Source of the DNA: an uncultured Acidobacteriota bacterium
GTDB taxonomy: Bacteria > Acidobacteriota > UBA6911
Direction of reading: 5' to 3'
DNA length: 64,000 bases
Assembly (NCBI GenBank): GCA_963809485.1
Contig: CAWEJX010000020.1
Span: 1,184,001 to 1,248,000, forward strand
Shown here: positions 43,348 to 64,000 of the stretch, one piece after another
Numbering within the stretch: the stretch's first letter is position 1
Layout: the number at the start of each line of letters is the position of its first letter
Made by a program: the position numbers and the translations under genes
Notes under the pieces: generated by a model
What the model was told of the DNA's origin: nothing
Databases searched by the model: none
The model's input: only the letters and a program-made list of their open reading frames with translations

Positions 43348-44994
43348 CTAGCGAGCCCAGACTTTCACGGTCCTGCCGCAACGAGTGTCAATCGCGTGCA
43401 CCGCGCATGCGATGCAGGGATCAAACGAATGAACCGTGCGCAGGACCTCCAAAGGTCGCGCGGGATCGGCGACCGGAGTGCCGACCAGGGCGCTTTCCAC
43501 AGGTCCCGGCAGCTGATTGGCGCAGCGCGGGCCGAAATTCCAGGTTGAAGGCACAACCATCTGGTAGTTGGCAATCTGCCCGTTCTGAATATCAATCCAG
43601 TGGCCCAGCGCTCCACGGGGCGCCTCATTCAGCCCAACCCCAGCCGCCTGCGCCGGCATGGCCCACCTCACGCGCGTGCTTCCCGCTGTGTTCAGCTGCT
43701 CGGTCCACTGATACATGCGATCGGCGATAATCTGCGTTTCCAATGCGCGCGCGGCGGTTCGTCCGAGAACTGAATTGAGGTTGCTTACACCGGACTGGTC
43801 CGCAAATTTTTGGACTGCATTCCTGGCTTCGGTTTGACCGCTCCGCACCGCCATAAGCATGCGCGCCAACGGCCCAACCTCCATGGGTTGATCGTGGTAG
43901 CGCGGCGCCTTCAACCAGCTGTACCGATCGCTCGTGCTCAGGCTGGTATAGCGGGGTTCGGTTATACCTTCCGAGGGATTGAGCGCTGTGGTCCCAGCAT
44001 ACCAGCTGTGACTCACATGCTCGCTAATTTCGGAAATGTCGATGCCTTCGATGCCTCCCCCGCCGATGATCGCGCCTGCTGGAAAAAAGGCCGAGTCTGG
44101 CTCCGATCGTCCCTCGGGAAACTCTCCAAAAGTCAGGAAATTGGAGCTTCCGCCAATCTCCGCCCATTTAAACCCATATCTTTTCGCCAGCAACGCCACA
44201 TCGGGAAGATAGATTGTATCCACAAAGTTTTTTGTTTCGTCCAGGATGGCCCTGAACTCGGCAATGCGGGCCGAAGTAATGTCATCGCGGCAGGTGACCC
44301 CGCCTACAATGAGGCTCTGCGGATGCGGGTTCTTGCCGCCGAAAATGGCATGCATCCTGGCCGTCCGCACCTGCTGGTGCAGGGCCTGGAGGTAATGTGC
44401 CACCATCAGGAGGTTTTCTTCAGGCGACAGGGCATACGCGGGATGACCCCAGTAGCCTCCGGCAAACGGCCCCAGTTGCCCGCTATTGACCAGCGTTTCG
44501 AGCTGAGCTTTGACGCCGGAAAAGTAGTCTATATCCAATTTTGTGGCTGTGCCTGTAAGCGCAGCCGTTTGAGCAGGATCGGCTCCCAATGCGCTTACCA
44601 CATCGACCCAATCAAGCGCGTGAAGGTGATAAAAGTGCACAATGTGATCATGCAGGAACTGGGTGCCCATCATCAGGTTGCGAACAATTCGGGCATTGTC
44701 GGGGATATCCAGGTTCAGGGCATCCTCCACGCAGCGCACGGAGGTTGATCCGTGGACGTAGGTGCAGACTCCGCAGAGCCTCTGCGTAAAAAGCCAGGCA
44801 TCTTCGGGTCTTCGTCCCTTAAGGATGATTTCCATTCCGCGGAAAAGCGTGCCGCTGCTCCAGGCGTTGGTTACCAATCCGTTGGAGACTTCCACCTCGA
44901 TACGAAGGTGGCCCTCGATCCGTGTGATGGGATCGATGACGATCCGGTTTGCGGATGGCTGCGGGGGCGGCGGTGGTCCGGGTTTTTTGGCCAT
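43348..44994 (-). CDS. Group 1 [NiFe] hydrogenase large subunit
   Basis: DPITRIEGH, L1 QRLCGVC, L2 FDPCIACAVH followed by a cleavable tail. Confidence 0.96.
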   Translation of the reverse strand: MAKKPGPPPPPQPSANRIVIDPITRIEGHLRIEVEVSNGLVTNAWSSGTLFRGMEIILKGRRPEDAWLFTQRLCGVCTYVHGSTSVRCVEDALNLDIPDNARIVRNLMMGTQFLHDHIVHFYHLHALDWVDVVSALGADPAQTAALTGTATKLDIDYFSGVKAQLETLVNSGQLGPFAGGYWGHPAYALSPEENLLMVAHYLQALHQQVRTARMHAIFGGKNPHPQSLIVGGVTCRDDITSARIAEFRAILDETKNFVDTIYLPDVALLAKRYGFKWAEIGGSSNFLTFGEFPEGRSEPDSAFFPAGAIIGGGGIEGIDISEISEHVSHSWYAGTTALNPSEGITEPRYTSLSTSDRYSWLKAPRYHDQPMEVGPLARMLMAVRSGQTEARNAVQKFADQSGVSNLNSVLGRTAARALETQIIADRMYQWTEQLNTAGSTRVRWAMPAQAAGVGLNEAPRGALGHWIDIQNGQIANYQMVVPSTWNFGPRCANQLPGPVESALVGTPVADPARPLEVLRTVHSFDPCIACAVHAIDTRCGRTVKVWAR

Positions 44995-45124
44995 TGTTTA
45001 TGCTCCTTTATTCAAACGCACTAAGCTGGTTCCAAGGTTCTCCGGCTCAAGGCTATGATCCGGCTGGTTTGCATCTCCCGGCAGTCGGGCTGCCGCTGTC
45101 GAAGCGTGAACATCCATGGTCCTG

Positions 45125-46057
45125 TCAGTCATCATCTCCTCCAGGTCCGTCTCCGTCCCGCTCGACATAGAAAGGCGACATGCGGTCCCAGAAGTTGGGT
45201 TCGCTGCACCCGATGCAGGGATGCCCGGCTTGGACACACCAGCTCGCGCCCTCGTTGAATTTGACGTTCGGGCAATTGTTGTAGGTCTGCTTGCCTCTGC
45301 AACCCATATCCTCAAGGCAGCGGTCGTCCTCGTCGCGGTATGGGCACTGCTCATGCACCCGCTTGCCGTAGGCGAACAGCGGCCGTCCGAAAGAATCGAG
45401 CGGTGGCATCTTGCCCAGCAGAAGGTAGTTGGCGATCGTGCCCACAAGGCTGACGGGGTTCGGTGGGCATCCAGGAATATTGATGACCGGTACTGTCAAA
45501 CGGCCCCCGAGGGCGTCTTTCACTCCCTTGGCCCCCGTCGGGTTGGGAGCGGCAGCTGCCACTCCTCCATAGCAGCTGCATGTGCCGGCGGCGATGATGC
45601 CCGCCGCCTGGGGGCAGATCCTTTGGGCGATACTGAGCATTGTCTCGCCTGCCACAAAACCATAGGTGCCCCTATTGAGTGTTGGTATCGAGCCTTCCAC
45701 CACACAGAAAAACTGGCCCGAATACCGGGCCACGGCATCCGCAAGCACTGTTTTAGCTTGTGTTCCCGCGGCAGCCATAATGGTCTCGTGGTATTCCAAT
45801 GAGATGCTGTTAAAAATGAGGTTGTCAAGCGGCGGTTCCGTGGATCGCAGAAGCGCTTCCGAGCAACCGGTACACTCGCCGAAATGAAGCCAGATCACAG
45901 GCGGACGGGTTCCGTCGGCGAGCGCCGCGTACACCCTGCCGCCGAAGGCAGGACCGAGACCTATGGCCGTTGCCACGCTTGTGCACAACTGAAGAAATTC
46001 GCGACGTGAAGGCTTTTCCAGTCGCTGCTTCGCTGGTGCGTGAATTTCGCGCGCCAT
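45125..46057 (-). CDS. [NiFe] hydrogenase small subunit, Tat-exported, no membrane anchor
   Basis: SRREFL Tat motif; ECTGCSE, GTC, PGCPP, HEQC...CL..MGC, NCP...C...GHPCIGC; acidic soluble C-terminus. Confidence 0.95.
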   Translation of the reverse strand: MAREIHAPAKQRLEKPSRREFLQLCTSVATAIGLGPAFGGRVYAALADGTRPPVIWLHFGECTGCSEALLRSTEPPLDNLIFNSISLEYHETIMAAAGTQAKTVLADAVARYSGQFFCVVEGSIPTLNRGTYGFVAGETMLSIAQRICPQAAGIIAAGTCSCYGGVAAAAPNPTGAKGVKDALGGRLTVPVINIPGCPPNPVSLVGTIANYLLLGKMPPLDSFGRPLFAYGKRVHEQCPYRDEDDRCLEDMGCRGKQTYNNCPNVKFNEGASWCVQAGHPCIGCSEPNFWDRMSPFYVERDGDGPGGDDD

Positions 46058-52033: not shown

Positions 52034-53137
52034 TTGGTTCCCAATGATTTCAAACCGAATGATTTGCAGTCAGCCATCAAAGGGTCGCGGCTGAGCCGCC
52101 GGGAATGGTTGCAGCGGGCCATGGCCGCTGCGGTAATTGTGCCGCAGGATTTTCCAGGAGGCGGGGGGGATTGGGGAGGGCGGGGACGCCGTTCCAGGCG
52201 TCCGCGTCGAACGATCGATCCCTCTCAAATACCCTCCTATAAATACCGGATCCTGCCTGCAGGCCGCTTCCCGGCGCTCCAGAAAGAATTCGAAGCCGCC
52301 CGGAATAACAGACAGCTTGGCAGCAACAAAATGTATCTCGATCAGATTGCTCCTTTGAATTTCAGGGTGCCCGGCGATTTTCCAAATGCCAAATCCGTTG
52401 TTGTCGTTGCAGCCTATTCAAAAAACATGTATGCGAATTTCCGCCTGAACGGGAATTCCTACCGGATTATGGTCCCGTTCCAATACTACAACGACGATTT
52501 GAATTCCGACAAACTGGCGGGCATCATCCAGAAAGACATCATCAAGACTCCCGGCCGGCGCATTATGGATGTTTCCTCCAAAATGCCGCTCAAGCTGCTG
52601 GCTGCGCGCAGCGGACTTGGACGCTACGCCCGCAATGGCCTGGTTTTTGTGGATGGCATGGGAAGCTACAATGTGCTCTATGCTTTTCTGACCGATCATC
52701 CATTCACGGAAGATCACTGGACAAACATGGAAATACTGGATGAGTGCAACCACTGCCATGCCTGTGAGCGGACGTGCCCGACAAGGTGCATCAGCCGTTG
52801 GAATTATAGCGTCAATATCGACAAATGCCTGACGCTTTACAACGAGAACCCGGGGGAATTTCCCAATTACATTCTCGGGAGCATGCATCACGCGTTGATG
52901 GGCTGCATGCAATGCAAAGCTCCCTGCCCCGCCAATGAGGGTATTGCCGAGCTTTCCGGCAACCTGGAAGATGTTTCTGAAGAGGAGACGCGGAAGATTT
53001 TAAAGGGCGCGCCGGACGATGCGCTGCTTAAATCCCTTCAGCGGAAACTGCGGCAATTCCGGGCCGTCGCATCAAAAGACCAGTTCCCGATTATGAAGAG
53101 GAATCTGAGCGTATTGATCAGGGGTGAAATGGTCTAG
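52034..53137 (+). CDS. QueG/reductive-dehalogenase-like double [4Fe-4S] protein with a twin-arginine leader
   Basis: SRREWL; AKSVVV; PLKLLAARSGLGRYARNGL...GS; CNHCHACERTCP; KCL...GCMQCKAPCP. Confidence 0.75.
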   Translation: MVPNDFKPNDLQSAIKGSRLSRREWLQRAMAAAVIVPQDFPGGGGDWGGRGRRSRRPRRTIDPSQIPSYKYRILPAGRFPALQKEFEAARNNRQLGSNKMYLDQIAPLNFRVPGDFPNAKSVVVVAAYSKNMYANFRLNGNSYRIMVPFQYYNDDLNSDKLAGIIQKDIIKTPGRRIMDVSSKMPLKLLAARSGLGRYARNGLVFVDGMGSYNVLYAFLTDHPFTEDHWTNMEILDECNHCHACERTCPTRCISRWNYSVNIDKCLTLYNENPGEFPNYILGSMHHALMGCMQCKAPCPANEGIAELSGNLEDVSEEETRKILKGAPDDALLKSLQRKLRQFRAVASKDQFPIMKRNLSVLIRGEMV

Positions 53138-53228
53138 ACGCGGATTTTCGCAGACGAAACAAATCATCTGAAGCGCTATAGTCCGAAAAGCGGCCCGCTT
53201 CAATTTCCGATTCCGGGAGAGATCCTGT

Positions 53229-54806
53229 TTGACCAAGAAACGCTCGACTGTTCACAGGTTGCTCCAACTGTTTCGGATTTTCAGCCAGTTCCTTTTCTTC
53301 TGCCTGTTTGTGTACCTGCTGCTGGAAACGCATTTTTCGGGGAAGGATTACATCGGGCCGGTCGAGCGCTTTTTTCACTTCGATCCGTTATTGGCCCTCA
53401 CCACTCTCATTGCATCAAGAGAGTTTTTGAAGGTATTCCTTTGGGCGCTGGTTCCCGTCGCTTTGACGTTGCTCTTTGGCCGCTATGTCTGTGGCTGGGC
53501 CTGTCCCTTGGGCGCTGTGCTGCAGTTCTTTTCTTTCCTCTCCAAAAAGATGAAGTGGCACACGCCAAAGCTTCCGGGGAGCCGGCTTCTGCCGTTGAAA
53601 TATGCCATTCTGGTTGTGGTGCTTGTGGCATCCATTTTCGCGTTGGACCTTGCCGGCTACCTGGATCCACTCTCCTTCCTATACCGTTCATTTATCACGG
53701 TTGTGCTGCCTGCATTCGCGGTTACGGGCGATGCGGCCGCATCTGTTCTCCCGAGCATCGGGATGGATACAAGCAGTGAAGGCCTGAGCCGGATTCTGCA
53801 AAATCTTACAATCAACAAGACCTTCCACCAGGGCCTGGTCCTCGGACTGATTTTTCTGACCGTCCTCCTTCTGAATCTGCACCGGGAGCGTTTCTGGTGC
53901 CGTTATCTGTGCCCCGCCGGCGCCCTGCTCGCTCTTCTTGCGCGATGGAACCTGGTAAAGGTCAGGGTCCATGAGGGAAAGTGCACCCAATGCAAGGTCT
54001 GTTCGCTTCACTGCCAGACTCAGGCCACACCCTTTCCCAATCAAGAATGGCAGCCGGGCGAGTGCGTTTATTGCTATTCCTGCGCCTCTCAATGTCCCAC
54101 CCAGGCCATCACATTCCCGATACTGGGGACCCGGGCCGACACAAAACCCGTCGACTTCCCCCGCCGCAAATGGATTTTTTCTGCGGTGTTCGGTTTGGCG
54201 ATTATCCCGCTCTTTCGAATTTCGGCAGCTTCAAAAAGGCCCTCGGAAAAGCTGATCCGGCCTCCCGGGGCGCTGCCCGAACCGCAATTTCTTGCCGCAT
54301 GCGTAAAGTGCGGCGAATGCATGAAGGTCTGCCCGACCAATGCCCTCCAGCCCGCATCCAACCAGGCCGGTCCGGAAGGTTTGTGGACGCCGGTGCTTGT
54401 TCCCAAAATCGGCTACTGTGAATATTACTGCTCGCTTTGCACTCAGGTATGCCCGACCGGAGCCATCAAGGAACTCAAAATCAAGGAAAAGATCAAAGTC
54501 AGAATCGGGTCGGCCTGGATTAACAAAAACCGCTGTCTCCCCTATGCCCTGGGCGAATCCTGCACCGTGTGCGAGGAGAAATGCCCGACTTCCCCCAAGG
54601 CAATCAGGCTGGCGGAGACGGAAATGCTCATGCCGGACGGCACATGGGATTACCAGGATGTTCCCGTTGTGGATCTCGATCTATGCATCGGGTGCGGGAT
54701 CTGCGAAACCCAGTGCCCCATATCCGACGATCCGGCGATTTACTGCACCAGCCTCGGGGAATCCCGTGCGGTCAAACCTCTTCCTACTCAAGACGGCAAC
54801 CCGTAA
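53229..54806 (+). CDS. Membrane polyferredoxin (NapH/MauN + NapG/MauM fusion type)
   Basis: GRYVCGWACP, FWCRYLCP, IRPPGA, CVKCGECMKVCP and further CxxCxxCxxxCP motifs. Confidence 0.88.
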   Translation: MTKKRSTVHRLLQLFRIFSQFLFFCLFVYLLLETHFSGKDYIGPVERFFHFDPLLALTTLIASREFLKVFLWALVPVALTLLFGRYVCGWACPLGAVLQFFSFLSKKMKWHTPKLPGSRLLPLKYAILVVVLVASIFALDLAGYLDPLSFLYRSFITVVLPAFAVTGDAAASVLPSIGMDTSSEGLSRILQNLTINKTFHQGLVLGLIFLTVLLLNLHRERFWCRYLCPAGALLALLARWNLVKVRVHEGKCTQCKVCSLHCQTQATPFPNQEWQPGECVYCYSCASQCPTQAITFPILGTRADTKPVDFPRRKWIFSAVFGLAIIPLFRISAASKRPSEKLIRPPGALPEPQFLAACVKCGECMKVCPTNALQPASNQAGPEGLWTPVLVPKIGYCEYYCSLCTQVCPTGAIKELKIKEKIKVRIGSAWINKNRCLPYALGESCTVCEEKCPTSPKAIRLAETEMLMPDGTWDYQDVPVVDLDLCIGCGICETQCPISDDPAIYCTSLGESRAVKPLPTQDGNP

Positions 54807-54987
54807 CCGCAACAGACAGCCGCCTGGCGATTGAATCCAGGCCACCCAGCACCAAGGTGGCAATCCATACCAGAACGGATTACAGCGCCCTTTGCGCCCG
54901 GGAAGCGTAGCAGCCAGAATTTGGTTGTTGGCTCGATCATTGGAATTTTGATAGGTTAGAGCTGAACCCGCAGGAGGAATTTCTATC

Positions 54988-56097
54988 GTGAAACGCTGGG
55001 TATTCCTTGTTTTGTATATTCCCATTACCGCCGGAGTTTTTCCGGCGCTGAGCAGAGCCGACGAACCTGCCGGGGGCAGGGAGATTTACCGTTCCGCCTG
55101 CGCGGCCTGCCATGGAGCCGACGGCAGGGGCGCTCCGGACAGCATGCGCGGCTTTGAACCGCCGAGCACCTTCCCCGACTTCACCACGTGCCGTGCCACG
55201 GTGCGTGAATCCGATGTATTTTGGGGCGCTATCCTGAACAACGGCGGGCCTGGCAGGGGCTTCTCCGAAATCATGCCCTCATTTCGGGAGGCTCTCACCG
55301 ACACTCAGATCGCCAAGGTAATGGAATACCTTCGATCGTTTTGCCGCGAACCTGCATGGCCGCGGGGCGAATTGAATTTCCCGCGCGCCCTGGTTACGGA
55401 AAAAGCCTTCCCGGAAGATGAAATGGTGCTGGACATGGCGATCAACACGGAAGGAGACGCCGCCATCACCAGTAGAGTCGTCTACGAAAAGCGTTTGGGT
55501 CCGAGGGGGCAGCTCGACGTTGTCATGCCGTTCAAGTTTCAGAACGCCGGCGGAAACGACTGGCAAGCCGGCGTGGGAGATCTTGTTGCCGGCTACAAAC
55601 ATGTGCTATTGAGCAATCTCCACACCGGATCGATCCTCAGCCTTGCCGGGGAAACCGTGTTTGCTACCGGGAACGCGGAACGCGACATGGGCAAAGGTGT
55701 TACGGTGTTCGAGGGCTTCGCCAGCTACGGTCAGATCCTGCCAAAACAAATGTTTCTCCAATTCCAGCCGGGAATCGAGCTGCCGGTCGACACGGACAAG
55801 GCCAACCGGGCGGTATTCTGGCGAACCGTCGTAGGCAGGAGTTTTGCCCCCGACAAGGGACTTGGTCAGCTGTGGTCTCCCATGGTCGAACTGCTGGCCG
55901 ACCGCGAACTGGCCTCCGGAGAGCGGATCAATTGGGATATCGTGCCCCAGTTCCAGGTAAGTTTAAGTCGGCGTCAGCACATCCGGGCAAGCGTCGGTTT
56001 GCGGCTTCCCGTAAACGACTACGGACCCAGACCTGCCCAGCTCCTCTTCTATCTGATGTGGGACTGGTTTGATGGAGGCCTGCGCGATGGGTGGTGA
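54988..56097 (+). CDS. Monoheme cytochrome c fused to a putative outer-membrane beta-barrel domain
   Basis: Signal peptide; CAACH and MPSF; then about 230 aa of amphipathic strands (GVGDLVAGYK, PQFQVSL, SVGLRLPV). Confidence 0.75.
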   Translation: MKRWVFLVLYIPITAGVFPALSRADEPAGGREIYRSACAACHGADGRGAPDSMRGFEPPSTFPDFTTCRATVRESDVFWGAILNNGGPGRGFSEIMPSFREALTDTQIAKVMEYLRSFCREPAWPRGELNFPRALVTEKAFPEDEMVLDMAINTEGDAAITSRVVYEKRLGPRGQLDVVMPFKFQNAGGNDWQAGVGDLVAGYKHVLLSNLHTGSILSLAGETVFATGNAERDMGKGVTVFEGFASYGQILPKQMFLQFQPGIELPVDTDKANRAVFWRTVVGRSFAPDKGLGQLWSPMVELLADRELASGERINWDIVPQFQVSLSRRQHIRASVGLRLPVNDYGPRPAQLLFYLMWDWFDGGLRDGW

Positions 56098-56101
56098 TAC
56101 T

Positions 56102-57727
56102 ATGCAAAAAAAATTGTTTTTTTGCCTGCTCGCAATAATCGCCGCTGGGGCGCTGACAGTGTCTGGCTGGAGCGCTCAGTCGGCTGTCAAGTCCCGCGTC
56201 CCGGCTTTCCAGACCTCCGACCGGTGCGTAGCCTGCCACAACGGGCTGGCTACACGTGCGGGCGAGGACATTTCCATCGGTCTGGCCTGGAAACCGACCA
56301 TGATGGCAAACTCGGCAACGGATCCTTACTGGCACGCCGGGGTGCGGCGCGAGAGCATCGATCATCCCGAATCGCGGGCGGCTATCGAGGATGAGTGCTC
56401 GATATGCCACATGCCGATGGCACGGTTCGAATCAACGCAATCGGGCCACGAAGGCACTATTTTCTCCCACCTTGGATTCCTGCCCGACGATCCCGGCGAC
56501 CAGCTGGCGGTCGACGGCGTTTCCTGCTCCCTGTGCCACCAGATCGGAAAAGAGAAGCTTGGGACGCGCGAGAGCTTTGTCGGCAATTTTGTGATCGGCG
56601 GCCCCAATGTTCAGGGGGAGCGGATGGAATTTGGCCCCTATGCTCCGGATGCCGGGCACGCCAGAATTATGCGGAGCTCGACCGGCGGCTTCCTTCCCGT
56701 CGAGTCCGCGCATATCCGCCAGAGCGAGGTCTGCGCGACATGTCACACGCTCATCACAAAATCACTCGGCCCCGGCGGAAAAACGATCGGCGAGTTCCCG
56801 GAGCAGGTCCCTTACCAGGAATGGCTGCATAGCGAATACAGGGAGAAGCGCAGCTGCCAGTCCTGCCATATGCCTGTGGTCGAGGAGGAGGTTGCCATCA
56901 GCAGTGTTCTGGGCGTGCCGCGAAAGGAAGTATCCCGGCATGTGTTCCTGGGCGGCAACTTTTTTATAAATGGGATTCTCAACCGCTACCGCAATGAGTT
57001 GAGCGTTCATGCGCTCCCGGATGAACTGACGGGTAACGCCAGGAGAACAAAAGAGCACCTGCAGTCGGAAGCGGCGCGGATCTCCATCGAGAAAGTGGAG
57101 GAGCGCGGCGGGCGTCTGGAAGTCGATGTTGCCATAGAGAATTATGGAGGCCATAAACTGCCCACAGCATATCCGTCGCGAAGAGTGTGGCTGCACCTGG
57201 CAGTGTGGGACTCGGAAAACCACAATCTTTTTGAGTCGGGCGCGATGAATTCAAACGGCGCCATCATAGACAACGATAATGACGCTGATGCCACGCGATT
57301 CGAGCCGCATTACACCGAGATCCGAAACACGGGGCAAGTGCAGATTTACGAGGCCATCATGGCCGACAGCAGCGGTGCCGTGACCACCGGGCTGCTGAAT
57401 TCGGTCCGGTATTTGAAAGACAATCGCCTGCTACCGCGCGGATTCGACAAAAAGACCGCCGAAGCCGATATTGCGGTGGCCGGCAATGCACTGGAGGACT
57501 TGGATTTCCGCGGCGGTGCCGACCGGGTGCGATACTCGATGGATCTGGGACCGACGCAGGGCCCCTTCCGGATTGAAGCCGAGCTGTGCTATCAGCCGAT
57601 CGGCTATCGCTGGGCCATGAACCTGAAGAATTACAGCGCCGAAGAACCCCGGCGGTTCATCGGCTACTACGAGGCTGCGGCCGGCTCCTCAATGGTAGTG
57701 CTGGCTCATGCGAGCAGAAATCAGTGA
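56102..57727 (+). CDS. Pentaheme c-type cytochrome (c554-like heme pattern) with C-terminal beta domain
   Basis: CVACH, CSICH, CSLCH, CATCH, CQSCH; signal peptide; GHKLPT. Confidence 0.88.
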   Translation: MQKKLFFCLLAIIAAGALTVSGWSAQSAVKSRVPAFQTSDRCVACHNGLATRAGEDISIGLAWKPTMMANSATDPYWHAGVRRESIDHPESRAAIEDECSICHMPMARFESTQSGHEGTIFSHLGFLPDDPGDQLAVDGVSCSLCHQIGKEKLGTRESFVGNFVIGGPNVQGERMEFGPYAPDAGHARIMRSSTGGFLPVESAHIRQSEVCATCHTLITKSLGPGGKTIGEFPEQVPYQEWLHSEYREKRSCQSCHMPVVEEEVAISSVLGVPRKEVSRHVFLGGNFFINGILNRYRNELSVHALPDELTGNARRTKEHLQSEAARISIEKVEERGGRLEVDVAIENYGGHKLPTAYPSRRVWLHLAVWDSENHNLFESGAMNSNGAIIDNDNDADATRFEPHYTEIRNTGQVQIYEAIMADSSGAVTTGLLNSVRYLKDNRLLPRGFDKKTAEADIAVAGNALEDLDFRGGADRVRYSMDLGPTQGPFRIEAELCYQPIGYRWAMNLKNYSAEEPRRFIGYYEAAAGSSMVVLAHASRNQ

Positions 57728-58191: not shown

Positions 58192-59391
58192 TCAACGAAT
58201 CAGCAGAACATCCCAGGTCCACTTTGCAGCATTGCTCCCCTTAGCCTCAATCTTTGCACGGTATCTGAACTGATTGCCATATTCGTCCACTTTTTGTGAC
58301 AACTTGTAGTCGAGACCTATTTCGGCAATGGCCAGCGATTCAAGAGCGTGCAGCTCATCCGGCTCCGATACCCCGTTGTGATTGACATCCTGCCAAAGTC
58401 GCAGGTCGCGGTAGATTCGGTCGCCGGCGTCTATCACGCCGTCTTCATTCCCTCCATTCTCTGCACGATCAAAAACTGCCAACGCCAGGAAGCCATTCTG
58501 CACTTCGCCATGGGGAGGGTCCGGTTGGGCCGTTGTGCTTCCAAACAATTCTGTTCCATCGTCAACAACCCCGTTCCCATTCCTGTCCAGCGTTAGCCAT
58601 GCATCATCCACACCCGCAGCCGTCCATGACAACTGCTCTCGGGCGCCGTCCAGATCCAGGTCAAACAGTATTCCGTCCGATTTATCCGTAAGCCGGATCC
58701 CGTCGCCCTGGAGGTCGATCAGAACAGGCGAGGAGCAGTACGACTCGGCCACATCGGGGGTGCCGTTGCAGTTGAAATCCACATTCGAGTAACAGTATGG
58801 CGTCGCGCCGGGGTGAATGAATGCCGCGTAGTCGTTGCAGTCATTGCCCCCAAAAGCCGTTCCGATATATCCGTCCTTATCCACGTCGGTGGAGAAATTG
58901 CAGGCATGCGTCTTCTCGACCCTTATGGCCGAACCTTGCGGTCCGGTGCACCCGATATCCACGACATAAGGTATGGATATGCCTTTTGAAGCGCATGTAA
59001 ACGGATCCAGGATCGGATATGTGGTCACATTTGCGGCCGTTGCGGAAAAATATCCCGGAGATCTCACCGGAGTATAAAAAATGGGCCAGCATTCCTTGTG
59101 CTTATACGGAGCGCCTACGACATTTCCCGGGTTGCAGGTATATGCGCAGTCGGATCTCCCCGAGGCTTGAAGATACACCGAGTCGGATATGCCATCCGCC
59201 CAGGTCATGCCGTAGGTGATTCCTTTGTAGATCGATGCCGCACAGTATGTATTTACGCCGGCACCGCTGCACCTGTTGTCGATCATTTGCGCCTGAATTC
59301 CATATACCATCATGCATGTATTGGCTTGACCTGCGGCAATTCTGACAAATGACGCCACAATCAGGAAAATCAAAGCAACATGTTTATCCAT
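58192..59391 (-). CDS. Sec-secreted Cys-rich protein with a Ca-binding DxDxDG/DCND motif and a C-terminal FrpC-type self-processing-module homologue
   Basis: Signal peptide; 13 Cys; DVDKDGY...DCND..IHPGA..C...DFNCNG; S-P222-VLIDLQGDG...DRNGNGVVDDGTELFG...LRLWQDVNHNGVSEPDEL. Confidence 0.8.
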   Translation of the reverse strand: MDKHVALIFLIVASFVRIAAGQANTCMMVYGIQAQMIDNRCSGAGVNTYCAASIYKGITYGMTWADGISDSVYLQASGRSDCAYTCNPGNVVGAPYKHKECWPIFYTPVRSPGYFSATAANVTTYPILDPFTCASKGISIPYVVDIGCTGPQGSAIRVEKTHACNFSTDVDKDGYIGTAFGGNDCNDYAAFIHPGATPYCYSNVDFNCNGTPDVAESYCSSPVLIDLQGDGIRLTDKSDGILFDLDLDGAREQLSWTAAGVDDAWLTLDRNGNGVVDDGTELFGSTTAQPDPPHGEVQNGFLALAVFDRAENGGNEDGVIDAGDRIYRDLRLWQDVNHNGVSEPDELHALESLAIAEIGLDYKLSQKVDEYGNQFRYRAKIEAKGSNAAKWTWDVLLIR

Positions 59392-59396
59392 AGCAG

Positions 59397-60239
59397 TTAT
59401 TTACCTCCCCGCATTTTTTTAAGATATGCACGATGCGCCCCACTTTTGTTTTCGTAATATTGTCGGAGCTGTTCCAGCATTTTCCCGCGCGTAAGCTCAG
59501 ATTGGTCTTGCGAATGCGCAGGCAAACGCATCATCTGCTCAACCTGCGCTGTGGCGTTCTCCCTGACGCTGCGCACTCCGGCAAGCATTGCGTTGAGAGC
59601 ACGCGGGCTTCCTCTCAAGATCTCGTCCTTGGACACCTCGGGCGAAACCATATCCGGAAATCCGTCCATCTCCTCCAAGATCGATTCCGGCAATTTGCGT
59701 ATTTTCTTTCTCAGCTCCTTCTCCTCCGTATCGCCGACCTGTTTCACAGGCATTTCGCGGAATATGCGTTTGAGCCGCGCAGTTTCCGCAATTTGCCCCA
59801 GGCGGTTGAATTCAATCGATTCTATGAACCCAGGCACACCCTCGCTTGACCCGTCCGAAAATACGACGGCGAGGATGTCCAGTGCTTTCCCGGCTCTTAT
59901 GGCTTCCTGAACCGAAATCGTGCTGATGGACGTCTCTCCGTTCGGTAATCCATCCGATTCAGAGTCGAACCAGTCTTCATACCGGGTCGTTTCGGTCGTC
60001 CCATCCTGGTAAGAAAATGCATAGGCAGTAATGGTCTTGTCCGAGATATTCTGAAAGGAGAGCGTCAGAAGATCCGGATTATCTTTCAACGTGGATGTTT
60101 CTACCAAACGTATGGCCCCCGTGTGCTGGTCCACCCTCCAGTCGACATGGACCTTTTGCGAGGCGAGCAGAGACATCGCCGTCATTAACCAAAAAGTTAG
60201 TGTGCTGGTAATGCAACAGACGCATCTGTGATTGGACAT
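59397..60239 (-). CDS. Secreted hypothetical protein, co-transcribed partner of the SPM protein
   Basis: Signal-like N-terminus; beta domain (FQNISDKTITAY...AVVFSDGSSEG) plus helical C-terminus; 5-nt gap to the next gene with GGAGG inside its 3' end. Confidence 0.7.
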   Translation of the reverse strand: MSNHRCVCCITSTLTFWLMTAMSLLASQKVHVDWRVDQHTGAIRLVETSTLKDNPDLLTLSFQNISDKTITAYAFSYQDGTTETTRYEDWFDSESDGLPNGETSISTISVQEAIRAGKALDILAVVFSDGSSEGVPGFIESIEFNRLGQIAETARLKRIFREMPVKQVGDTEEKELRKKIRKLPESILEEMDGFPDMVSPEVSKDEILRGSPRALNAMLAGVRSVRENATAQVEQMMRLPAHSQDQSELTRGKMLEQLRQYYENKSGAHRAYLKKMRGGK

Positions 60240-60797: not shown

Positions 60798-62414
60798 ATG
60801 AAACGGCTCAATGGATTGATTTCCGTCGTCAGCATTTTGTGTATTGCGCTTTCAGCTTTCGCGCAGGAATCCAAAGTTGTTGTAGTCCGTGCCGGATCCA
60901 AAGAATTGAAGCGTTCCGCGCATCGGTTGCGCATCCCGGTCGAACAGCTGAAAAACGCCCGCCAGACTCTGCAGGAGGCCACCGATCTGGCCGGAAAAAT
61001 CAAGCCGTACCCGATGATGCAGGTTTACAGCCTCGCAAACAGCTGGCAGCAGTTGAACCGCTCCAAGGTGAAAACGGTTGTCGACTCCTTTATACAGGAT
61101 TTGAGATCTGAGGCTGCGCAGGCGGAAGACCCTCAGATATATATGCAGGCAACCACGACGGCGATGTCCCTTATGCAATCGTGCGCCGAATTTGACTATG
61201 AAAAGCTTCAGCAGACGCTGCGAGGGTGGCCGGATCCTCCCGACGCGATTGCCGAATCAATGCGCAAGTTTCGGGAAAGCCTGGAAGGAAATGCCAGGCA
61301 AAGCTCGCTGTGGCGGATGGCAAATACCGATCCGGAAAAGGCCCTGGAGCTCATATCTCAGGCGGGCGATTCCGGAGAATATAACTATGCCATCTCCGCG
61401 CAAATCGCCCAGGGATTTATGAATGAGGGGAAAAAGGACGAAGCGTTCGGTGTTATCGACAAGACAATTGCCGATTTCAGCCGTCACGCTGCGGACCCGC
61501 GCGCCCTGCAATCCTATGAAAGCTTCGTTCAAATGTCGGCGTGGCAGCTCGATTCTTCCCGCGCTGCAGCCGCCATGGCTCCGTGGATTGCGCAGCTGAC
61601 CAGCGCCGACTCCCCGGCTGAATGCGGCGGAACGCTGAGTGCCGACAATACCTCCGTGGATTTGACCTGCGCCGAGTCTAAAATCTTAAACCTTGTTCGC
61701 AGCTTCCCCACCAAGCCCAGCCTGGTACAAAGGACCCTGGATTCGATTCCCGGCCTGAGCTCCAAGGTGGACAGCATCGGTGGAATCGACAATCTTTACT
61801 CGAACTCAGGGATGAGTTTCACTATGGGCCCAAAAGCCGGCAGGCATCCCATGACTTCGCCCCCCGTGATGCCCGGCAACCCGTCGAGGCTGTTCCAGGA
61901 GCTTAGAGGAAAAGCCCGGTCGAATCCCGGATATGTAAGGGAGAAGCTGCAGGAGCTTGCGGGCAGCCGGCAAGGCGTCGAAACGCTGATAAATCTGGCT
62001 GTGATGGCATCCTACCAGGAGGACGAGCTCTCAAGCCTGGCGCTGGAAGCCGCACAGGAGTGTATTCCCCGGATCGAGCCGCTTCAAACGCGTTCCACTA
62101 TCCTGCAACAGTTGATTGGAGCCTACCGGCAGGTTGAGGGAGAGGTCGATCAGGGGCTGCTGCAAAACGGATTCGTCCTGGCGGATCAATTGAGACAGGA
62201 GCAATCAGAAAAGAATGGAGCTACGGATGAGATTAGTTCCCCGACGCCCCAAGGATATGCTCCGGCCGATCAGTTTGAAGCCTTTCTGGTATCGGAGCTT
62301 TCGAGGGATTCCTTCGACAGCGCGATCAACTACGTGCGCTCAATGAAGGATGGCGACTTCAAGCTTCAGTGCCTGATCCAGATTGTCCAGGCTCAAGGCC
62401 AGCCAAATTTCTGA
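60798..62414 (+). CDS. Secreted alpha-helical repeat hypothetical protein
   Basis: Signal peptide (AFA-Q); 538-aa helical ORF; RBS GAGGA. Confidence 0.75.
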   Translation: MKRLNGLISVVSILCIALSAFAQESKVVVVRAGSKELKRSAHRLRIPVEQLKNARQTLQEATDLAGKIKPYPMMQVYSLANSWQQLNRSKVKTVVDSFIQDLRSEAAQAEDPQIYMQATTTAMSLMQSCAEFDYEKLQQTLRGWPDPPDAIAESMRKFRESLEGNARQSSLWRMANTDPEKALELISQAGDSGEYNYAISAQIAQGFMNEGKKDEAFGVIDKTIADFSRHAADPRALQSYESFVQMSAWQLDSSRAAAAMAPWIAQLTSADSPAECGGTLSADNTSVDLTCAESKILNLVRSFPTKPSLVQRTLDSIPGLSSKVDSIGGIDNLYSNSGMSFTMGPKAGRHPMTSPPVMPGNPSRLFQELRGKARSNPGYVREKLQELAGSRQGVETLINLAVMASYQEDELSSLALEAAQECIPRIEPLQTRSTILQQLIGAYRQVEGEVDQGLLQNGFVLADQLRQEQSEKNGATDEISSPTPQGYAPADQFEAFLVSELSRDSFDSAINYVRSMKDGDFKLQCLIQIVQAQGQPNF

Positions 62415-62810: not shown

Positions 62811-64000
62811 ATGCACGCCTTGGAGGGTATTCTGATAGCGCTGGAGGCCCTTTGGGCCGAAAAACTCCGCACTTTGCTCACATTGCTAGGAAACATCGTC
62901 GGAGTGATGTCCGTCATCGCCGTCGTAAGCATCATTGACGGTTTAAATTCCTACGTCCGTACCACGATCGCCGACGAAGGTTCCGGCGTCTTCCAAGTGC
63001 AGCGGTTCAACCGGACCGACATACTCTCAAATTTCGACAGATTTCTGGAATCCCGGCACAATCCCAAAATTACGCTCGCGGATCTGAAATTTCTTCAGCA
63101 ACGGGTGACCACGGCAGAATATATGGACGCCAATCTGTCCAATTCGGCCGAAATACGGCACCGGAGGAATTACATCAGGTCCGTGGAGATCCAGGGCCGC
63201 TCCGAGAATTATCCGATGCTTGGAAATTGGAGCTTGAAAGACGGCCGGCATTTTTCGCGTCAGGAGGTCGAGCGCAGAGTCCAGGTCGCGGTCATAGGAT
63301 ACGATATAGCCGAACGCCTGTTTCCCGGGGCCGATCCGGTCGGAATAGATCTGAAAATTGCCGGAGAGAGCCATCGCATTATTGGAGTTTTGGAAAAGAA
63401 AGCCGGCGTGCTGGGGGATGACGCAAACCTCTTTGTTGTGATCCCCATAACATCCTTCCAGAAAATTTTTGGCACACGGAACTCCATCTCCATTTCCATA
63501 AAGGCGACTGACGTTGACAACATAACCGACTGTGTCGATCAGACCCGCCTGGTGATGCGCGCCTTGCGCCATCTGGGACCGAAGAGCGACGATAACTTCG
63601 GCATTCTTACTTCAGATAATCTAATCAGCTTATGGGAACAAATCAGCCAGGGCATTTTCGTGGCTCTGGTAGGAATCGTATCCATCAGCCTGGTTGTGGG
63701 CGGCATCGTGATTATGAACATCATGCTGGTGTCGGTGACGGAAAGAACGCGGGAAATCGGCATACGCAAGGCGACCGGAGCAACGCGGCTGAACATACTT
63801 TGGCAGTTTCTGGTCGAGTCCATCACGCTGTCCACGGCCGGAGGCGTCATTGGAATTATGATCGGTTTTGGCATTGCGGCCGCTATAGCATATTTTTCGC
63901 CCTTGCCCTATGCGATCAAGCTCTGGTCAATCGGCGCGGCGCTGGGTGTCACATTTGCCGTAGGCGTGTTTTTCGGCATTTATCCGGCGATGCAGGCGGC
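62811..64000 (+). CDS. MacB/FtsX-type ABC transporter permease (3' truncated by the window)
   Basis: Manual translation: KLRTLLTLLGNIVGVMSVIAVVSII...LVVGGIVIMNIMLVSVTERTREIGIRKATGA...QFLVES...FFGIYPA. Confidence 0.92.
   Translation, partial: MHALEGILIALEALWAEKLRTLLTLLGNIVGVMSVIAVVSIIDGLNSYVRTTIADEGSGVFQVQRFNRTDILSNFDRFLESRHNPKITLADLKFLQQRVTTAEYMDANLSNSAEIRHRRNYIRSVEIQGRSENYPMLGNWSLKDGRHFSRQEVERRVQVAVIGYDIAERLFPGADPVGIDLKIAGESHRIIGVLEKKAGVLGDDANLFVVIPITSFQKIFGTRNSISISIKATDVDNITDCVDQTRLVMRALRHLGPKSDDNFGILTSDNLISLWEQISQGIFVALVGIVSISLVVGGIVIMNIMLVSVTERTREIGIRKATGATRLNILWQFLVESITLSTAGGVIGIMIGFGIAAAIAYFSPLPYAIKLWSIGAALGVTFAVGVFFGIYPAMQA

Follow-up and report, generated by a model that had tools for sequence, protein, structure and literature searches.

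The self-processing module (SPM), on which the NeissLock ligation technology is based, is known from a handful of RTX proteins made by pathogens. What does such a module do when it sits at the end of a non-RTX, Cys-rich exoprotein and when the Asp of its scissile Asp-Pro bond is replaced by Ser? This question is raised by a two-gene cassette in a 64,000-nucleotide stretch of the genome of an uncultured soil bacterium of the Acidobacteriota (contig CAWEJX010000020.1, positions 1,184,001 to 1,248,000; hereafter, the window), where the open reading frame (ORF) at 58192..59391 of the minus strand encodes a 399-amino acid protein, P0001, and the ORF upstream of it encodes a candidate partner, P0002. 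A first-pass annotation, made from the letters of the window alone, compared the C-terminal domain of P0001 to the SPM of FrpC and treated the pair as a dedicated export or display system.

The C-terminal domain of P0001 is a self-processing module

In a phmmer search of the PDB sequences, residues 222-383 of P0001 matched the FrpC SPM chains 6SJW (E 4.1e-25) and 6SJX, the precursor form (E 1.2e-24), with 37% identity to the FrpC SPM. Because P222 aligns with FrpC P415, S221 occupies the place of FrpC D414; the junction reads ...SYC219-S-S-P222-VLIDLQGDG, and 178 residues extend from P222 to the C-terminus. Comparison at the level of fold, which sets the predicted AlphaFold2 (AF2) model against the solved chain 6SJW, gave the same result. 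The model of P0001, built on a 120-sequence alignment, has a pLDDT of 86 (above 90 over most of the module) and was matched to 6SJW by Foldseek with E 1.5e-14 and a TM score of 0.77; in a Foldseek-independent VIA fold scan of 48,161 chains, 6SJW was recovered with Z 19.8 and a root mean square deviation of 3.1 A over 157 residues, model residues 222-399 being superimposed on residues 1-170 of the chain, and the runner-up reached Z 4.6. The SPM match of the C-terminal domain is far beyond chance, and residues 222-399 of the predicted structure display the hallmark fold of this module, namely, two perpendicular beta-sheets with paired N- and C-terminal strands.

Residues were mapped onto the FrpC sites described by Kuban et al. 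2020 (PMC7078468). FrpC W451 and W519 correspond to W256 and W333, D456 corresponds to D263, the loop D462-E474 to D269/N271/N273/E281, and the loop D521-E532 to D335/N337/N339/E346; the mapped Trp residues, D263 and the residues of the EF-hand-like loops are invariant or nearly so in the 120 relatives. At these aligned positions, P0001 retains two EF-hand-like Ca2+ loops and the packing pair W451/W519 of FrpC, residue by residue. The first Ca2+ site is partial, with Q228 in the place of D421. The SPM family is defined in Pfam as PF26745, which covers FrpC residues 415-591; the family, named ‘SPM’ in Pfam 38.1 according to the ESM Atlas listing, is precomputed on all 120 relatives listed. Sequence, fold and the residues of the Ca2+ sites thus all identify residues 222-399 as a genuine SPM domain. 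Pfam has placed these proteins under SPM already, so that the domain call in itself is no novelty.

The likeness to the SPMs of FrpC and ApxIVA is that of whole-module homology and includes the same starting Pro, both Trp residues and both Ca2+ loops. The differences are these: where FrpC carries D414, D421 and D478, P0001 carries S221, Q228 and S285, and its D499 loop is longer by an insert of five residues; FrpC has the module in an internal position, P0001 at the C-terminus; and the FrpC class combines RTX repeats with a type I secretion system (T1SS), whereas P0001 has, by eye, a Sec-type signal peptide. P0001 produced no HemolysinCabind or other RTX match in Pfam at E values up to 1, and no T1SS component was found among the 45 window ORFs of at least 150 amino acids, the nearest transporter gene being a MacB/FtsX permease at 62811. 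As it lacks both Asp-Pro and RTX repeats and comes without a T1SS, P0001 falls outside the clip-and-link RTX class. All this agrees with the first-pass annotation, which had read P0001 as a non-RTX protein with a Sec signal, 13 Cys, a DxDxDG motif, a Ser-P222 junction and a terminal domain of 178 residues, and had taken that domain for a complete, C-terminally placed SPM with Ser for Asp; the structural comparison that it had proposed as a check returned the SPM.

A large acidobacterial clade with a Ser/Thr-Pro junction

P0001 is one of a very large, mainly acidobacterial clade that numbers in the thousands. A word-seeded search of 5.8 billion proteins yielded 5,509 matches with E<=1e-3 among the 8,000 candidates scored (219-699 amino acids), and another 499 among 1,872 candidates in the length range of 700-2000 amino acids; among the matches listed, the named sources are nearly all Pyrinomonadaceae, Blastocatellia or unclassified Acidobacteriota. 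Within a draw of genomes from the phylum, 31 of 301 contain an SPM match at E<=1e-10, with up to 11 copies per genome in one family; the window's own genome has a single SPM gene.

The Pro that starts the module is invariant in all 120 aligned relatives, and the residue that precedes it was scored in three partly overlapping samples. Among 103 scored proteins of near-equal length, it is Ser in 79, Thr in 21, and Cys, Arg and Asn in one each, the lone Asn stemming from a doubtful regular-expression hit some 290 residues away from the C-terminus. The genome loci supplied 81 ORFs, of which 76 were scored (Ser in 62, Thr in 14), and among the five unscored ones, two visibly have Ser or Thr and three are truncated. 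The sample of 120 long proteins gave 109 scored junctions (Ser in 85, Thr in 24); in the remaining 11, the pattern does not occur within 165-260 residues of the end, and several of these have a domain after the module. Pooled, the samples comprise 288 scored junctions; 285 of these have Ser or Thr before the Pro, and Asp occupies this position in none. In a maximum likelihood tree of 48 modules (midpoint-rooted, with the FrpC-type outgroup not included), P0001 belongs to a 27-row clade (support 96/95) in which every row has Ser or Thr; the starred branches force at least six changes of the Thr label, and Ala, Gly and Asn do not occur.

The module lies 177-182 residues from the C-terminus in 93 of the 109 long relatives, and in most of the other relatives as well. 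The passengers vary, and include subtilisins (S8) with PA14 and fn3 domains, matrixin or reprolysin-like metalloproteases, and unknown Cys-rich modules with PT-rich linkers. Extracellular proteases of acidobacteria thus commonly carry a Ser/Thr-Pro SPM at the C-terminus.

Several further observations concern individual members of the clade. Many of the long members, P0315, P0317, P0319, P0320 and P0323 among them, are S8 proteases with PA14 and fn3 domains or M10 metalloproteases that end in a Ser/Thr-Pro SPM. Pyrinomonadaceae-type modules also turned up in metagenome-assembled genomes titled Heliomicrobium, Heliobacteriaceae or Clostridia (L011, L026, L037 and L069; two of the four were placed in the Pyrinomonadaceae clade by the tree); mis-binning or mislabelling, rather than transfer, is probably responsible. 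The SPM ORFs L038:3944-4555, L022:4253-4858 and L008 (genome G028) are shortened just before the junction or interrupted by an internal stop (one TAA in the G028 copy) and are possible pseudogenes or assembly errors. Short members of 221-250 amino acids were considered as candidates for a signal peptide followed by a small Cys-rich peptide, but this was rejected: they have no signal peptides and resemble truncated gene calls.

More distant copies carry other nucleophilic residues at the junction

The survey of the phylum also produced weaker SPM matches, 20 of which were drawn for inspection. Their junctions are Asp-Pro in six (L093-L096, L105 and L110), Glu-Pro in one (L108), Cys-Pro in two (L100 and L103), Thr-Pro in four, Ser-Pro in six and Ser-Val in one (L097); thus, the side chain at the junction is nucleophilic (Asp, Glu, Cys, Ser or Thr) in all 20. 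L105 and L110, both from genome G220, combine a signal peptide, 12-14 Cys, an Asp-Pro junction and a C-terminal SPM with a P0002-like gene directly upstream, so that the architecture of P0001 also occurs with the canonical dipeptide. L108, from the same genome, is a Sec-type Cys-rich protein with Glu-Pro and a P0002-like gene upstream. L093-L096 (genomes G246, G275, G195 and G085, respectively) are small, Cys-free Asp-Pro proteins with no RTX motif and no visible signal peptide. Together with L105 and L110, they show that an Asp-Pro SPM can occur outside RTX proteins, contradicting the statement in the structure paper of Kuban et al. that the SPM is exclusive to RTX proteins (PMC7078468).

At position 285, the counterpart of FrpC D478, Asp accompanies the Asp junction in L093-L096, the G220 copies have His, and mostly Asn or Ser accompanies Ser/Thr. 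Covariation between the junction and this position was considered as evidence and rejected, because phylogeny confounds it and there are only two Asp clades. The two Cys-Pro proteins, L100 and L103, are copies from genome G078, and the passenger of L103 is a HEIGH zincin.

The upstream gene is a partner that travels with the SPM gene

P0002 ends five nucleotides before the start of the P0001 gene. The window's own genome contains one SPM gene and one partner gene, and these are adjacent. Among 40 related genomes, a full-length orthologue of P0001 was found only in G012 (52% identity), where a homologue of P0002 (32% identity, E 1.4e-30) lies immediately upstream; comparison of the 4 kb on each side in G012 with the 14 kb around the window's pair gave no other match. 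A search with a passenger-only alignment added two metagenome loci, one of which is informative: contig L090 carries the same pair, with the two genes overlapping, beside yet another neighbour, whereas the second contig, L091, ends at the gene. Altogether, all three orthologue loci that are informative keep the pair, and the genes that flank it differ from one locus to the next. In the wider family, an independent profile of 151 representatives detected a partner gene immediately upstream of 22 of the 108 SPM ORFs, on the strand of the SPM gene, corresponding to 15 of 80 genome loci, and these loci include proteins with passengers unrelated to that of P0001; next to other members of the SPM family, the upstream gene is unrelated or there is none. 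The upstream gene is a real partner that travels with the SPM gene.

The first-pass annotation had expected variable passengers on a constant module, a dedicated upstream partner and an undescribed two-gene system, and had proposed that these be judged by collecting homologues. The passengers do vary, from Cys-rich modules to subtilisins and metalloproteases, and the upstream gene is linked. Neither of the outcomes that the annotation had named as refuting, namely, no structural match to the SPM, or invariant passengers and no link to the upstream gene, was observed. For the partner, the annotation had suggested a role as chaperone, receptor or immunity factor. The dedication of the partner stands for the three orthologue loci, with their different flanks, but extends to only 15 of the 80 wider loci, about a fifth; and the system is not a singular one, as P0001 is one member of a thousands-strong clade already filed under ‘SPM’ in Pfam 38.1.

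The partner family is large and evolves fast. An exhaustive search with a HMMER profile of 14 sequences retrieved 2,908 cluster representatives at E<=1e-3, a number that falls to 1,181 at 1e-10 and to 149 at 1e-30; among the best 150, every length lies within 194-344 amino acids, and identity among homologues is 12-30%. N64, G134 and R146 are invariant in the alignment, which also shows the motifs N-x-S-x-K-x-I and F-x-D-G. The AF2 model of P0002 (14-sequence alignment, pLDDT 85.5, pTM 0.78) starts with a predicted helix, residues 4-25, that would be either a signal peptide or an anchor. Pfam, NCBIfam and PADLOC gave no match for P0002, and the fold searches with Foldseek and VIA returned only generic Ig/FN3-like sandwiches or helices, with Z <=7.2.

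The obvious point of comparison is FrpD, a 271-amino acid lipoprotein encoded in one operon with FrpC (PMC5233953). FrpD binds the passenger part of FrpC (FrpC1-414) with a Kd of about 0.2 nM, and a tethering role has been proposed for it (PMC5233953). What the frpDC operon and the window's pair have in common is an exported protein of 250-280 amino acids, of no known family, in one operon with an SPM protein; they differ in that FrpD is a lipoprotein, whereas P0002 has, by eye, no lipobox. A PDB profile search with the partner alignment (E up to 10) gave no meaningful match, and FrpD was absent from its results as well as from the Foldseek and VIA lists, although the two proteins may share a fold.

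Fusion of the partner domain to SPM proteins was also considered, and the independent profile found no fused cases at 1e-5. Thirteen longer SPM proteins carry an N-terminal sandwich that resembles the partner (hhalign probability 97.5%, E 7e-12, 107 columns), rows that were chosen with a related iterated profile; because the independent profile misses them, this is a remote resemblance and a lead only, not a proven fusion.

Clustering of neighbours across the 80 loci brought up other recurrent genes. In 16 loci, the gene immediately upstream of the SPM gene belongs to a second exported family, of about 270 amino acids (L014:2344-3165, L019, L030, L042, L048, L050, L053, L058-L060, L063, L068 and four more); it has the motifs AHLS.DKTGVYSEF and R.GG.VRFPSG and no Pfam match, and a related family (hhalign 91%) occurs in five further loci (L033, L037, L039, L087 and L088). 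The P0002 family and this second family are unrelated (hhalign 1.4%). A thioredoxin-like gene with a CHFC motif is found just upstream of the partner in six loci (L020:1207-1749, L062:2081-2656, L072:2478-2990, L080:802-1365, L049 and L066), and at least eight proteins have a thioredoxin-like CHFC domain fused C-terminally to the SPM (P0021, P0071, P0322, P0354, P0364, P0384, P0389 and P0396). This link suggests a dedicated thiol-disulfide oxidoreductase for Cys-rich cargo; no thioredoxin-like gene lies beside the window's pair.

Proposed processing at the Ser-Pro junction and its alternatives

The explanation that we tentatively favour, over that of a non-cleaving module, is that P0001 carries a Ca2+-triggered, hydroxyl-based processing module acting at Ser221-Pro222. 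Sec export would deliver the protein to a Ca2+-containing compartment, where the module would fold around Ca2+ and strain the Ser221-Pro222 bond in the way that FrpC strains Asp414-Pro415, with the beta-hydroxyl of Ser or Thr substituting for the carboxylate of Asp. The hydroxyl might then act in one of two ways, by an N-to-O acyl shift at the bond before it or by helping the attack on an activated Ser-Pro amide, so that the C-terminal module would be clipped off or the passenger freed as an activated ester. Under this scenario, the SPM would be a Ca2+-gated, self-removing pro-domain for diverse extracellular passengers. Given the linkage of the two genes, the most likely role of the partner is to bind the SPM protein and so escort or tether it; the partner would be FrpD-like in function, with no homology to FrpD seen in the searches.

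Autoproteolysis through an N-to-O or N-to-S acyl shift at Ser, Thr or Cys is established in inteins, Hedgehog, SEA, GAIN/GPS and Nup98, and attack by a side chain that precedes Pro is known for Asp in FrpC and for Asn in YscU (the Asn-Pro cleavage of FlhB/YscU). The set of residues at the junction, Ser, Thr and rarely Cys, matches the classic set of nucleophiles of the acyl-shift systems. These systems, however, have no sequence or fold relation to the SPM, and an acyl shift cuts on the N-terminal side of the nucleophile, so that the cut would fall one residue upstream of the FrpC site.

The closest competitor is a module in which the clip chemistry has been lost and the SPM persists as a Ca2+-dependent folding, stabilising or binding domain of exoproteins, possibly as a Ca2+ switch that prevents folding before export, or as an anchor that fixes the protein to the partner or the envelope; Ser and Thr would then be kept as N-caps, and Asp and Asn would be selected against. 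The FrpC mutant P415A folds normally and loses cleavage (PMC7078468), so that the Pro is unnecessary for the fold; since only cleavage is lost in P415A, the invariance of the Pro across the clade is hard to explain by folding alone and goes against a non-cleaving module. The same is true of the restriction of the junction to beta-hydroxyl residues (with a rare Cys), with Ser and Thr swapped repeatedly and no Ala or Gly, and of the retention of Asp-Pro by sister lineages of the same architecture; all these features count for processing, as does the near-constant terminal position of the module, which is what would be expected of a removable pro-domain.

Other observations weigh against processing. 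FrpC D414A shows neither cleavage nor ligation (PMC7846742), no paper was found in which Ser had been placed at FrpC position 414, the hydroxyl of Ser cannot form the five-membered anhydride, and Asp is found at none of the 288 scored junctions. Gly, Pro or Asp in front of Asp-Pro nearly blocks FrpC cleavage (PMC7846742), yet the residue preceding Ser/Thr is Gly in 15, Pro in 11 and Asp in seven of 103 proteins (33/103). D478 of FrpC belongs to a modelled fifth Ca2+ site at the cleavage site (PMC7078468); the Asp is gone from its counterpart, S285 in P0001 and mostly Asn in the clade, and the counterpart of D421, Q228, is variable. The at least eight relatives in which the SPM is internal and followed by the thioredoxin-like domain fit a structural module equally well, and, because the residues of the Ca2+ loops and both Trp are kept, Ca2+-dependent folding is the best-preserved property of the module. 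Conservation of Ser/Thr could itself be structural, given that both are good strand or helix N-caps. Furthermore, the partner family has no invariant Lys or Cys, and the Sec-type signal peptide of P0001 was judged by eye only. The more elaborate form of hydroxyl-based processing, in which the modules of the Ser/Thr-Pro clade would perform a Ca2+-triggered clip-and-link reaction, with an ester or beta-lactone-like acyl intermediate at the C-terminus of the passenger that is then hydrolysed or passed to a nucleophile of the partner or the envelope, appears unlikely.

Two further possibilities were considered. A constant C-terminal domain on many unrelated secreted passengers, subtilisins and metalloproteases among them, which reaches 11 copies per genome in one family of acidobacteria, resembles C-terminal sorting domains or pre-peptidase C-terminal domains, and could be read by a separate secretion or sorting machine, with an external protease cutting at Ser/Thr-Pro. 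We regard this as improbable: with a single copy in the window's genome and any copy at all in just 31 of 301 genomes of the phylum, a dedicated machine is unlikely; the clustering of neighbours in the 80 loci revealed no recurrent protease or transporter, just the two small exported families and the thioredoxin-like gene; and the domain is homologous to a module that processes itself. Least credible of all, in our assessment, is a toxin-immunity pair, in which the Cys-rich passenger would be an antibacterial or antifungal toxin and the exported upstream protein its immunity factor. The cassette is patchy and mobile-looking, its flanks being different in two congeneric genomes, the partner is fast-evolving (12-30% identity), and both proteins have an N-terminal export signal, all as such a pair might have. 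However, SPM proteins whose passengers are unrelated share one partner family, the remotely related sandwich at the N-terminus of 13 SPM proteins would be unlikely for an immunity protein, and there was no PADLOC or toxin-family match, nor a fold match of the passenger.

Implications

The literature search produced no paper on PF26745 and none that joins the self-processing module with Acidobacteria. No paper was found, either, on the Ser/Thr-Pro rule, the Sec-type non-RTX architecture, the acidobacterial expansion, the partner families or the thioredoxin link, although the supplements of the NeissLock homologue survey (PMC12538545) might list such sequences. Thousands of Sec-type proteins of soil Acidobacteriota that are not RTX proteins share the SPM fold, have Ser or Thr in place of Asp throughout and form cassettes with unannotated partners, which should be of interest to those who study autoprocessing, protein ligation and acidobacterial exoproteins. 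If the junction is reactive, these proteins represent a new self-processing chemistry and a source of modules for protein engineering; if it is inert, they make up a natural set of non-cleaving SPMs that would show the role of the fold apart from cleavage. Either way, they offer a testable handle on many ‘hypothetical’ acidobacterial exoproteins and on two unannotated partner families. Should the ester clip-and-link reaction be real, it would be a new natural protein-ligation chemistry in thousands of exoproteins of soil bacteria, with the upstream gene providing the acceptor or tether.

Organization of the locus

The features of the two genes are listed in Table 1. The AF2 model of P0001 places a helix at residues 3-19, within the by-eye signal peptide (MDKHVALIFLIVASFVRIAAG), and the N-termini of the orthologues resemble that of P0001. 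All 13 Cys lie between residues 26 and 219, and the last 178 residues are Cys-free. The linker that connects the passenger to the module contains the motif D169-V-D-K-D-G174 and, at residues 184-213, a match to PF11617, the MopE metal-binding motif (28.6 bits against a Pfam cut-off of 27, E 1.7e-6); PDB 2VOV (MopE) aligns to residues 170-212 with E 7e-4. D169, D171, D173, G174, C185, C200, C208 and C219 are invariant among 19 orthologues, and the passengers of orthologues P0003-P0019 are 47-95% identical to that of P0001, with the Cys kept as well. The likeness to MopE consists in residues 184-213 scoring above the Pfam cut-off and residues 170-212 being alignable; however, what is present here is just a short Cys/Asp repeat in a linker, not the copper-binding domain of MopE. 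For the passenger proper (residues 22-165), searches of Pfam, NCBIfam and PADLOC gave no match, and the VIA scan gave no PDB match of the passenger fold above Z 4.6.

Table 1. Coordinates of the features of the two-gene SPM cassette in the window
Feature	Positions	Strand	Basis or content
Signal peptide, residues 1-21 of P0001	59329..59391	minus	by-eye reading; n-region MDKH, hydrophobic core, AAG-Q
Beta-rich Cys-containing passenger, residues 22-165	58897..59328	minus	AF2 strands 29-161
Cys/Asp-rich MopE-type metal-binding motif and linker, residues 166-220	58732..58896	minus	PF11617 and PDB 2VOV matches
Ser221-Pro222 junction	58726..58731	minus	counterpart of the FrpC Asp414-Pro415 scissile bond by HMMER alignment
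SPM-fold predicted Ca2+-binding domain, residues 222-399	58195..58728	minus	6SJW sequence and fold match
Stop codon of the P0001 gene	58192-58194	minus	
Partner gene P0002, 280 amino acids	59400..60239	minus	helix 4-25, beta-sandwich 35-134, helical bundle 136-276 (AF2)
Stop codon of P0002	59397-59399	minus	

The ATG at 60239, taken as the start of P0002, agrees with the starts of its homologues. Promoter and terminator scans at the locus gave results no better than those for shuffled sequence, and among the sequencing runs listed there is no RNA run, the shares all being small (<=0.17). Divergent from the pair, a gene at 60798-62414 on the plus strand encodes a 538-amino acid protein with a signal-peptide-like N-terminus and no Pfam match; it is not kept beside the pair in G012. 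Elsewhere in the window, a NiFe hydrogenase (large and small subunits, with a HycI protease) is encoded at 43351-46057 on the minus strand, and 4Fe-4S proteins together with c-type and multihaem cytochromes, including an MtrC-like domain match, are encoded at 52034-57727 on the plus strand; both clusters lie upstream of the SPM cassette.

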